The notes beneath the pieces are model-generated. The model made no database searches and had not been told where the DNA came from. It was given only the letters and a program-made list of their open reading frames with translations. Made by a program: the position numbers and the translations under genes. From Alphaproteobacteria bacterium (lineage in GTDB: Bacteria; Pseudomonadota; Alphaproteobacteria; CAAHEQ01; UBA3637), in NCBI GenBank assembly GCA_045118155.1, contig JBGUXS010000078.1:443-64442 (forward strand): a DNA stretch of 64,000 nucleotides, written 5' to 3'. Positions 13,429 through 63,808 of the stretch are shown here, piece by piece. The stretch's first letter is position 1, and each line of letters opens with the position of its first letter.

Positions 13429-13485
13429 ATTTTCTCTTTCCTTCCAATAAAAAGGGCCTTTACCCTTGCAAAGGCCCTGACAAAC

Positions 13486-13755
13486 TTACTTGCGCAAACC
13501 TAAGCGCCGTAAAATATCTTCATACCTCTTCACTTCTTTCTTTTTCAGGTATGTAAGCAGTGACCGTCGTTCTGCCACCATTTTCAACAATCCACGCCGT
13601 GAATGGAAATCCTTAGCATGTGTTTTCATGTGTTCTGATAAGTCCTTAATCCGTTCGGTTAAAATAGCAATTTGAACCTCTGGTGAACCGGTATCAGTTG
13701 GTGACAAAGCAAATTCTTTGATCAACTGTTGTTTTTTTTCTTTACTTAACGACAT
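13486..13755 (-). CDS. rpsO: 30S ribosomal protein S15
   Basis: 89 aa, ...[23 protein letters not shown]... Confidence 0.92.
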
Positions 13756-17224: not shown

Positions 17225-17249
17225 CTTATCACTTTTACGTTCGCATACG

Positions 17250-17285
17250 CTCACCGAACTCCCTCAACGTGAGTTCTCATCTTCT
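17250..17285 (+). terminator. possible weak terminator hairpin after birA (GAACTCcctcaacgtGAGTTC followed by a T-rich stretch)
   Basis: 6-bp stem. The 12-nt right arm is also complementary to part of the adjacent tRNA-Ser. Confidence 0.3.
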
Positions 17286-17303
17286 TTAATATTTACCTTG
17301 AAA

Positions 17304-17393
17304 TGGCGGATGGAGTGAGATTCGAACTCACGTTGGGCGTAAACCCAAACACACTTTCCAGGCGTGCGCCTTCAACCACTCGGCCATCCATCC
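17304..17393 (-). tRNA. tRNA-Ser (anticodon GGA), 90 nt, long variable arm, encoded CCA
   Basis: Cloverleaf read by eye from the reverse complement: acceptor GGATGGA/TCCATCC, D-arm GCCGAGTGGTTGAAGGC, anticodon loop CTGGAAA, long variable arm, T-arm GTGAGTTCGAATCTCAC, 3' GCCA. Confidence 0.85.
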
Positions 17394-17444
17394 ACATTGT
17401 TTATTAAAGCATATTTTTACTCAAAAATCAAGAGATATATTTTC

Positions 17445-62093: not shown

Positions 62094-63050
62094 ATGATAA
62101 AAAAGCAAGTTTTTCGTGATAAAAATCCAAATCTAATTTCCATTGCTCCAATGTTAGATTATACGGATACTTTTTTCCGCCTTTTTTTTAGGCATATTTG
62201 TGTTCATGCTATGCTTTATACAGAAATGCTTCCCATCGGGGCGGTTTTACATCAACCACAAACTTTTTTAAAAGCCCAACGCACCCCTGGCCCATTAACG
62301 GCACAACTAGGGGGAAATAATCCGGGGGAACTTGCAGAATGTGCCTACCGGCTAGAACAAGCGGGTTTTGATGGGGTCAATTTAAATGCAGGTTGTCCAT
62401 CTGAACGGGTACAAGCAGGGTCTTTTGGGGCATCGTTAATGAAAACCCCAGAAGTTATTGCTGATTGTTATCAAGCCATGGCGTCCAAAGTTAAGATCCC
62501 TGTATCTATTAAAACCCGTCTAGGATTCGTTGGGGAAGATTTAGCAGAAAAAACCCAAAATCTAACCAAAATTTTATATCAGGCAGGGTGTCGACACCTG
62601 ATTTTTCACGCTAGACCCGCCGCTTTAAACAAATCCCCGAAAGAAAATCGGCAAAATTTACCCTTGCATTATGAAATTGTGTATAAAATCAAGGCAAAAT
62701 ATCCAGATTTATCTATCACGTTAAACGGCTCTATTTTATCAGACGAGGCCATTCATACTCATTTACAGCATGTGGACGGCGTTATGATTGGCCGGTGGGC
62801 TTATGGGAATCCATATGCTTTAACAAGAATAGATAAGGATTATTTTGGGGATGATCATCCCATTTTAAAACGAACAGAAATTTTAGAAAAAATGATACCT
62901 ATTCTTGAAAAAGCCCCTGCTTTTTTAGAAGCCGCCAAAAGTATGATGGGATTGTTTCACGGGACACCATATGCAAAAAAATACAAAAATGTTCTCATGG
63001 CACGGGATTTAGGCCTTTTAAAAGAATGGCTTACCACCATAAAAGAATGA
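62094..63050 (+). CDS. dusA: tRNA-dihydrouridine synthase A
   Basis: IAPMLDYTDTFFR...NLNAGCPS...K..R.G TIM-barrel Dus motifs. Confidence 0.85.
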   Translation: MIKKQVFRDKNPNLISIAPMLDYTDTFFRLFFRHICVHAMLYTEMLPIGAVLHQPQTFLKAQRTPGPLTAQLGGNNPGELAECAYRLEQAGFDGVNLNAGCPSERVQAGSFGASLMKTPEVIADCYQAMASKVKIPVSIKTRLGFVGEDLAEKTQNLTKILYQAGCRHLIFHARPAALNKSPKENRQNLPLHYEIVYKIKAKYPDLSITLNGSILSDEAIHTHLQHVDGVMIGRWAYGNPYALTRIDKDYFGDDHPILKRTEILEKMIPILEKAPAFLEAAKSMMGLFHGTPYAKKYKNVLMARDLGLLKEWLTTIKE

Positions 63051-63159
63051 AACATCAACTTTCCGCGATTATAGGAAAAATATTGCGCAAAAAGGGGATA
63101 TCCTCGCATAAATCATCGCTCACCCTATCCATAAAAAATGCCCTATTTTGGGGCTTTTC

Positions 63160-63340
63160 TAAGCTAAAGGTGGCTGGATTAGGGATCAACGAATGACGGA
63201 ACGGATAGTTGGTGAGAACAAGCTGCTAAGCACAGTTTGAACCTTACGACGTGAGGAGGACCCGTTTACGGGAGTACCCAACCGAATCCGTCCACTTACC
63301 ACTTAGCAACACCCCAATATGCGGTCTTCGTATAACACAA
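63160..63340. ncRNA. candidate structured RNA in a locally GC-rich part of the 390-bp dusA-ORF63443 spacer; class and strand unresolved
   Basis: Local base composition differs from all other intergenic DNA in the window. Nested complementarity: gacggaacgg...ccgaatccgtcc, cccgtttacggg hairpin, gctaag...cttagc. No ORF. Confidence 0.3.
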
Positions 63341-63388
63341 ATTTTATAAATCACAAGAAAAATATAAGAAGAATAGGCCATATTGCAC

Positions 63389-63416
63389 TTGACTTTTTAA
63401 AATGAAAATATACTCT
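63389..63416 (+). promoter_or_regulatory. possible promoter of ORF 63443: TTGACT (63389-63394), 14-16 nt, TATACT
   Basis: gcacTTGACTttttaaaatgaaaaTATACTct. The spacer is suboptimal. Confidence 0.35.
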
Positions 63417-63442
63417 GTTATCAAAGAACAAAGGACATTTAT

Positions 63443-63808
63443 ATGTCACAGGAACGCATACCCAAAGACAAGGTAGAAATTATTACCTTAAGGCGTTTCT
63501 CTCACAGATTATTTTGCTTACCTTACACCGAAAAACAAAAAATAAAAGAACAAGTTTTACACATGTCTTCGGCACTTAAACTGGCTCTACTCGCTAAAAA
63601 CTGTTTAACCTTAGAAAAAAATCTTAACCCCTTAGAAAGCTATACCATCACTCCAGAACAATTTAAAAAAAATTTTTATACGCCGGCGCGTCTACTGTTT
63701 GATCACCCTGAATATCAGGCCCTTTTTATTTCTTTTCTTTTTACAGATCATTTGGTCACTAAACAAAAAGCATTTCCTAAAAAAGAAAAACTGCTTTCTG
63801 CTTGCTAA
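63443..63808 (+). CDS. hypothetical protein, 121 aa
   Basis: Open frame with an upstream promoter-like element. No motifs. Confidence 0.45.
   Translation: MSQERIPKDKVEIITLRRFSHRLFCLPYTEKQKIKEQVLHMSSALKLALLAKNCLTLEKNLNPLESYTITPEQFKKNFYTPARLLFDHPEYQALFISFLFTDHLVTKQKAFPKKEKLLSAC

Follow-up and report, generated by a model that had tools for sequence, protein, structure and literature searches.

In the 64-kb window analysed here (the whole stretch of DNA, 64,000 nt long, from an uncultured alphaproteobacterium), a spacer of 392 bp separates dusA, with its stop codon at 63048-63050, from ORF121, which starts at 63443. ORF121 itself (63443-63808) had no match in Pfam. A first-pass annotation, made from the sequence by eye, had described the spacer as GC-rich and free of ORFs, and both descriptions hold. 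The open reading frames that overlap it are all 56 aa or shorter, and the GC content of 63150-63349 is 0.47-0.51 in 100-nt windows, compared with 0.27-0.38 in the rest of the spacer and a mean of 0.39 for the window. The stretch 63166-63316, which we refer to as the core, has a GC content of 0.51, a value reached by just 1.0% of all 151-nt windows. Of the 10 segments that lie outside ORFs and measure 100 nt or more, only one, the tRNA-Ser segment at 17225-17444, holds a comparably GC-rich stretch. Elsewhere, 13429-13741 is a segment of 313 bp without an ORF of at least 90 aa; its GC content of 0.40 rises to no more than 0.45 in any 100 nt, and Rfam at the gathering threshold gave no match there. 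The complementary stretches from which nested helices had been proposed in the spacer were found at the positions given for them: gacggaacgg at 63195-63204, ccgaatccgtcc at 63282-63293, cccgtttacggg at 63261-63272 and cttagc at 63302-63307.

Searches against known families identified little at this site. Rfam at the gathering threshold returned tRNA-Ser alone for the whole window, and at E up to 10 the interval 62950-63550 gave chance-level matches only (STAXI at 19 bits, mir-644 and STnc430). ARAGORN detected neither a tmRNA nor a second tRNA in the window, and Rfam called no tRNA at 63166-63316, whether at the gathering score or with E up to 10. The first-pass annotation had seen no sign of tmRNA, RNase P or SRP RNA, and that judgement is upheld by Rfam, for 6S RNA as well, and by the tmRNA search of ARAGORN. 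The spacer core is not repeated elsewhere in the 64-kb window. A blastn search of a 361-bp segment against plasmids and phages found no match, nor did five exact-pattern scans of viral contigs, and a 19-mer scan of a genome collection gave only two chance matches, in the high-GC genomes L004 and L005. A 19-mer scan of metagenomes returned two informative loci, L007 and L008, in addition to a chance match, L006.

Homology to a tRNA-Gln(CUG) transcription unit

The L007 locus differs from the window locus in genomic context and matches the spacer core at 88%. It holds an intact tRNA-Gln(CUG) gene at 2373-2447 (called by ARAGORN; 60.1 bits with the Rfam tRNA model). In alignment A3, the minus strand of the window aligns with this gene through the promoter, the 5' half, the 3' part and the terminator flank, with identities of 27/33 in the 5' half, 15/15 in TTCCGTCATTCGTTG and 12/12 in AATCCAGCCACC. 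A second copy, hereafter copy A (L007 2102-2322; also L014 5760-5980), shares its 5' half and sits directly upstream of the intact gene; with copy A the alignment of the window extends across an 82-nt insertion as well. The window terminator is homologous to the terminator that follows the intact tRNA-Gln in L007 (A3), and since the flank beyond it is also homologous to L007, the copied unit spans ~63113 to ~63362. A tRNA-Gln transcription unit of ~250 bp thus lies antisense between dusA and ORF121 (Table 1).

Table 1. Features of the dusA-ORF121 spacer and its variants (window positions unless a locus is named)
Feature	Position	Strand	Basis or remark
Segment of ~343 bp (boundaries +/-3)	63045..63388	.	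A1; present in window, L001, L020; absent L002
Flank beyond terminator (AUGGAUAGGGUGAGCGAUGA...), homologous to the sequence after tRNA-Gln in L007	63113..63139	-	blastn, A3 columns 320-341
Two-way terminator, hairpin 63140-63154	63131..63160	both	terminator scan
Pseudo-tRNA derived from tRNA-Gln(CUG), 151 nt including the insertion	63166..63316	-	A3 vs L007 copies
tRNA 3' part, U UCCGU CAUUC GUUGA UCCCUAAU CCAGC CACCUUU	63166..63201	-	A3
82-nt anticodon-loop insertion replacing U35 G36 A37	63202..63283	-	A3, A5
tRNA 5' half, UGGGGUG UU GCUA AGUGGUA AGUG G ACGGA UUC	63284..63316	-	A3
Promoter-like element, -35 TTGTGA 63356-63351, 16-nt spacer, -10 TATACG 63334-63329	63329..63356	-	A3 columns 22-50
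TTGACT-14-TATACT	63389..63414	+	upstream of ORF121; homologous to dusA 3' end (CTTGACTTCTGA) in L002; A1
PNPOx-like gene	L008 3526-4285; L017 4133-4639; L021 1196-1702		very AT-rich DNA

The promoter-like element carries TG at -15/-14 in its spacer, and a 12-nt leader precedes the tRNA 5' half. Its -10 hexamer is TATACG in the window and TATACT in both L007 copies, the final T having been lost in the window lineage; a simple promoter scan did not report the minus-strand TTGTGA-16-TATACG. The 5' half spans the acceptor 5' strand, the D arm, the anticodon-stem 5' strand and the first three bases of the loop, and the 3' part spans the anticodon-stem 3' strand, the variable loop, the T arm and the acceptor 3' strand. 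On the minus strand the terminator reads GCCCCAAAAUAGGGC followed by AUUUUUUAU, at the end of the tRNA cassette; on the plus strand it reads GCCCUAUUUUGGGGC followed by UUUUCU, at the end of dusA. The terminator stem is shifted yet kept in L001.

What remains of the tRNA is far from a cloverleaf. The anticodon loop is UUC-(82 nt)-U instead of UUCUGAU, and the anticodon is gone. In the D stem, GCUA/AGUG, U12.G23 is the sole possible pair. The T loop, UCCCUAAU, is non-canonical and 8 nt long, with A.C at the stem end, and the acceptor strands UGGGGUG/CACCUUU form four Watson-Crick pairs, two G.U pairs and one U.U. CCA is not encoded: AGC follows the acceptor 3' strand, compared with CACCCCA-G-CCA in the intact L007 copy. 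With its anticodon, cloverleaf features and CCA lost, the window copy cannot act as a tRNA. ARAGORN in intron mode found no tRNA in it, and when the insert was replaced by TGA the window, L001 and L008 copies were left uncalled even with the threshold relaxed to 85%.

The homology also accounts for helices that had been seen by eye. The helix between gacggaacgg and ccgaatccgtcc arises because the tRNA anticodon stem (ACGGA/UCCGU) closes the insertion, and the cccgtttacggg hairpin sits within the 82-nt insertion (A3). A T-arm motif had indeed been invisible because the T loop is degenerate, with UCCCUAAU in place of UUCGAAU. The first-pass annotation had proposed a structured RNA of no recognised class, by implication on the plus strand; the origin from an RNA gene stands, whereas alignment A3 goes against both the unknown class and the strand. 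Nor did a promoter-like element proposed at 63389 survive, as the spacer from TTGACT to TATACT is just 14 nt and the stretch is homologous to the end of dusA in L002.

Copy A of L007 is in better condition. All four of its stems are kept around two insertions, the 82-nt one in the anticodon loop and another of 72 nt in the T loop, and with both removed in silico ARAGORN calls it tRNA-Gln(ctg). Its promoter, TTGTGA-16-TATACT, is near-consensus. Copy A has no terminator of its own, and would therefore be co-transcribed with the working tRNA. Its folding energy gave z = -2.40 against shuffles. Downstream of the intact tRNA-Gln, L007 2590-2830 holds repeated units, each closing with the tRNA 3' end and then the same junction and terminator (ATCCAGCCACC/TTTAGCTTTAAAAATGCCCC...); among them are tRNA 3' ends in inverted orientation and a T arm whose loop holds an insertion of ~70 nt. 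Among the ORF217 relatives L009-L013 the tRNA-Gln array is absent at the site and an IS110 element is found instead. In L009-L012 (~694-1690), where the ORF217 homologue is 86% identical, 41 nt separate it from the IS110-family transposase gene downstream, which is followed by tandem repeats of the GTCATCCC... type. The HAD-anchored relatives L022-L025 had no tRNA or insert nearby.

Strain variation and rate of change

Syntenic contigs were recovered through DusA homologues. L001, whose DusA is 94% identical, shares the 392-bp spacer. In L002, where DusA is 84% identical, the distance from dusA to the ORF121 homologue (ORF122) is 42 bp, and dusA runs directly into sequence homologous to window 63389 onward (A1). 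L003, where DusA is 61% identical, has neither the spacer nor ORF121, a gene found in the window species and L002 only. The ~343-bp segment that L002 lacks supplies a replacement dusA stop, the TGA at 63048-63050. No terminal inverted repeats could be read at the ends of this segment, and no integrase is present in it in any haplotype, its sole cargo being a PNPOx-like gene.

That gene encodes 168 aa (Pfam PF01243, E = 4.9e-8) and is present in some strains (L008, L017, L018, L019 and L021), between the dusA stop and the pseudo-tRNA terminator, where the window has 40 bp instead. L008 is the same species as the window; L017, L018 and L019 resemble L008, and L020 resembles L001. The part of the spacer replaced by the PNPOx-like segment in L008 contains, in the window, a near-palindrome GGGGATATCCTC (core GGATATCC) at 63093-63104. 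In L021, a deletion between two GAAATTA 7-mers (microhomology) removed the cassette and the first ~11 codons of ORF121; the PNPOx-like gene is kept there, its end fused to about codon 12 of ORF121 (L021 1680-1710). As L021 has lost the ORF121 start, ORF121 may be dispensable too. In this uncultured alphaproteobacterium, the region between dusA and ORF121 is a hot spot for indels.

Several candidate identities were rejected. A housekeeping RNA (tmRNA including the two-piece form, RNase P, SRP or 6S) has no model match in the segment and would be missing in L002; because the segment is absent from this related genome, it is not an essential RNA gene at the site. A multi-copy palindromic element or MITE is at odds with a single copy in the 64-kb window, inverted ends of only 6 bp and a target that was not duplicated, and the ideas of an IS200/IS605 end, an omega-RNA or a MITE were dropped after the tRNA homology emerged. 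An attachment-site remnant of a tRNA-integrating island would duplicate the 3' part of the tRNA alone, at the edge of an island with an integrase, and does not fit a copy in which promoter, 5' half and terminator flank are all represented. The first-pass annotation had itself named an Rfam scan and conservation in relatives as checks on a structured RNA. The spacer has no Rfam match, it is absent from L002 as the nearest other species, and its cassette is deleted in strain L021, results that largely go against the structured-RNA reading.

The core changes between strains at a neutral rate: 3 of its 151 positions (2.0%) differ between the window and L001, and the third codon positions of dnaE differ by 2.2%. 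Overall the two are 98-99% identical, with 99.1% in dnaE (97.8% at third codon positions) and 98.1% in the core. We rejected the idea that selection keeps the core better conserved than the left spacer, as the flank is a divergent tract (~91%) and the core is at genome background. The region 62200-63160, comprising dusA and the left spacer, is 85-93% identical to L001, compared with 97-100% in the rest of the 10-kb overlap, and dusA third codon positions are 79.6% identical, vs. 97.8% in dnaE. These identities suggest that the region is a recombination tract, imported from a lineage further away and ending at the terminator hairpin.

The dusA locus and the tRNA-Gln array co-occur in 3/3 samples that yielded either of them (Ga0310695, ERZ27256887 and SRR9008757). 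The short-read contigs L016, L018 and L019 break off almost exactly, to within a few bases, where unique sequence gives way to the shared sequence (tRNA body and insert), and these breaks are consistent with a two-copy repeat in one genome. Judging by the co-occurrence and the contig breaks, the window and L007 loci probably share one genome, and gene conversion between the copies would therefore be feasible.

The 82-nt insertion and the interpretation of the cassette

The insert is 82/82 identical to the window in L001 and L008, and 81/82 in copy A of L007. Together with the adjacent 15 nt, 96 of 97 positions are identical between the window and copy A, against 12 mismatches among 41 positions in promoter plus leader and 6 among 33 in the 5' half (Fisher p = 6.6e-6 vs. 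the insert stretch). Such a contrast between insert and flanks could be produced by selection, by recent independent insertion or by gene conversion. Once C-to-T changes specific to the window are set aside, however, the two loci nearly agree throughout the tRNA body and not in the insert alone, a further reason to favour gene conversion. Rfam at E up to 10, on both strands of the insert, gave no match, Intron_gpI included. No third copy of the insert was found in the 64-kb window or in ~110 kb of related loci, and a covariance model of its four-way fold (R1), run on ~176 kb of window and loci, recovered known copies only. A literature search found no description of a tRNA loop insertion of this kind.

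The insert is predicted to form three hairpins, which on the plus strand make up a four-way junction closed by GUUGG/CCAAC and CGGAU/AUCCG. For the plus strand of 63195-63290, z was -2.25, with 6/200 shuffles as good and the MFE structure accounting for 21% of the ensemble; for 63140-63340 it was -1.78, with 7/200 shuffles as good. The corresponding minus-strand folds gave z = -1.09 (63195-63290) and -0.45 (63140-63340), and the 151-nt unit, 63166-63316, folded no better than shuffles on the minus strand (z = +0.32). Predicted folding is just modestly above chance, on the plus strand. A single site varies among the insert copies, and it is located in a loop.

We interpret the GC-rich core as a decayed, interrupted paralogue of a whole tRNA-Gln(CUG) transcription unit on the minus strand, most likely a non-functional relic, and give this reading a probability of about 0.7. 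The whole unit (promoter, body, terminator and ~25 nt beyond) would have been copied into the strain-variable dusA-ORF121 segment, and the 82-nt insertion in the anticodon loop removes the anticodon. The window lineage has also lost the D-stem pairing, the canonical T loop, three acceptor pairs, CCA and the key last T of the -10 hexamer. That the insert is so alike at both loci would stem from gene conversion or recent copying within one genome, of which we favour gene conversion. The cassette is presumably little transcribed, or not at all, and without function; some minus-strand transcription is possible, given the near-consensus -35, the TG of an extended -10 and a good minus-strand terminator. 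A present-day role is plausible only for the hairpin at 63140-63154, which may now end dusA transcription.

The probability that the insert conceals a functional or mobile element is low, though not negligible. Stated most generally, the 82 nt would be an undescribed structured element of tRNA-Gln anticodon loops, either a tRNA-scaffolded sRNA or a new site-specific insertion that is not group I, with the window copy as one of two sites that it occupies; we consider this unlikely. In the first of these forms, the insert or its tRNA-like carrier would be a functional small RNA made from the minus strand with the promoter and terminator of the tRNA. The tRNA-derived stems would serve as a scaffold or processing signal, loosely like the tRNA-like and inserted domains of tmRNA, and in L007 the insert RNA would be co-transcribed with the working tRNA-Gln. 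The near-identity of the insert between loci (81-82/82) next to flanks differing by 18-29% would fit a functional RNA, as would the four intact stems of copy A around its two loop inserts (z = -2.40) and the retention of the -35 and the terminator in the window. The scaffold in the window, however, has decayed in the D stem, T loop and acceptor stem, the final T of its -10 is lost, and its 151-nt minus-strand unit has a z of +0.32. The absence of the cassette from L002, its deletion in L021 and the neutral change between strains speak against selection for such an RNA. There is no covariation, the single variable site being in a loop, and scans of viral contigs, the genome collection and metagenomes, together with R1 on the loci, found no copies beyond this one species. 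A functional small RNA is, on balance, improbable.

An insert found at an identical site in two copies with diverged flanks is also what a small mobile or homing element, non-autonomous and directed at the tRNA-Gln anticodon loop, would leave if it had entered twice, recently and independently; the tRNA copy in the window would then be simply its dead host. Its short inverted ends, GGUUGG...CCAACU, and the compact hairpin cluster suit such an element, and the T loop of L007 copy A, itself enlarged by an insertion, shows that such tRNA copies tolerate insertions in their loops. We nevertheless give it a low probability. The two sites known are both in tRNA-Gln paralogues of probably one genome, and no other copy turned up in the 64-kb window, in the ~110 kb of related loci, or among plasmids, phages and viral contigs. 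A clean target-site duplication is missing, the three loop bases UGA having been replaced and not duplicated, and no candidate recombinase lies nearby. A structured RNA of unknown class on the plus strand, either a gene of its own or the intercistronic part of a dusA-ORF121 read-through transcript, seems very unlikely. It would explain why the plus strand folds better than the minus strand (z of -1.78 vs. -0.45, and -2.25 vs. -1.09) and why G.U pairs in two hairpins become A.C mismatches on the minus strand, and with the weak terminator tail UUUUCU, read-through from dusA is conceivable. But two G.U pairs fall on the same strand by chance half the time, the long-range helices are explained as tRNA-derived sequence in antisense (A3), and there is no plus-strand promoter between the hairpin and the core; such an RNA would also have no Rfam match and no conservation beyond the species, and would have been lost in L021.

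The reading of a functional tRNA-Gln gene whose 82-nt intron is spliced out is nearly refuted. Its appeal lies in the position, as the anticodon loop is the site of all known bacterial tRNA introns and group I introns are the interruptions found there (Williams, 2020, bioRxiv 10.1101/2020.01.27.920355). The last base of the insert is also G, in keeping with an intron, but a group I match is absent at E up to 10, plain excision would leave ACGGA-UUCU-UCCGU, a 4-nt loop without an anticodon, and restoring TGA in silico does not turn the window exons into a tRNA. The smallest known group I introns are ~200 nt, and 82 nt is far below this minimum. Bacteria are not known to possess the bulge-helix-bulge splicing endonuclease.

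If the core is indeed a dead tRNA gene on the opposite strand, it offers a clean explanation for a GC-rich, helix-rich spacer in an AT-rich genome that RNA finders miss, and scans that report orphan structured regions should be read with this in mind. Such cases would be caught by comparing the opposite strand with tRNA halves, or by allowing large loop insertions. Should the insert prove functional or mobile, it would add a novel type of interruption to those known from bacterial tRNA genes.

Comparison with known systems

The RtT RNA, or tyrT-operon repeats, of E. coli (RF00391) share with the units described here their derivation from a tRNA, the kept tRNA 3' end and a position adjoining tRNA genes. 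In L007, the stretch 2641-2768 has the architecture of RtT, an inverted and a direct tRNA-Gln 3' end with a T-loop insertion, and scored 22.6 bits (E = 0.1) against the RtT model, with a family threshold of 45 bits; blastn of this RtT-like unit against E. coli genomes gave no match. The window copy ends in a CCAGCCACC/UUUAGC junction, as the repeated units of L007 do. It differs from RtT RNA in giving no match to the model at E up to 10, in having no T-loop insertion, and in possessing a 5' half and a promoter.

Like a bacterial tRNA gene that holds a group I intron, the window copy is interrupted in its 7-nt anticodon loop. The insert in the window differs in that it has no group I core, is 82 nt long, restores no loop on excision and lies between degenerate exons. 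Rickettsia palindromic elements are short hairpin-forming insertions (~80-150 nt) in RNA or protein genes, with many copies per genome. The insert is alike in size, in its hairpins and in its location in a low-GC alphaproteobacterial gene; the many copies per genome contrast with its two known copies, both in tRNA-Gln paralogues.

The closest comparison is with bacterial tRNA pseudogenes and decayed duplicates. Unlike the usual tRNA pseudogene, the window copy is interrupted at the anticodon by an 82-nt insert that is also present in a second paralogue, and its whole unit has moved beside an unrelated gene, dusA, in antisense. Like these pseudogenes, it is homologous to a functional gene, tRNA-Gln(CUG), promoter and terminator included, it has lost cloverleaf features, and it is variably present among strains.
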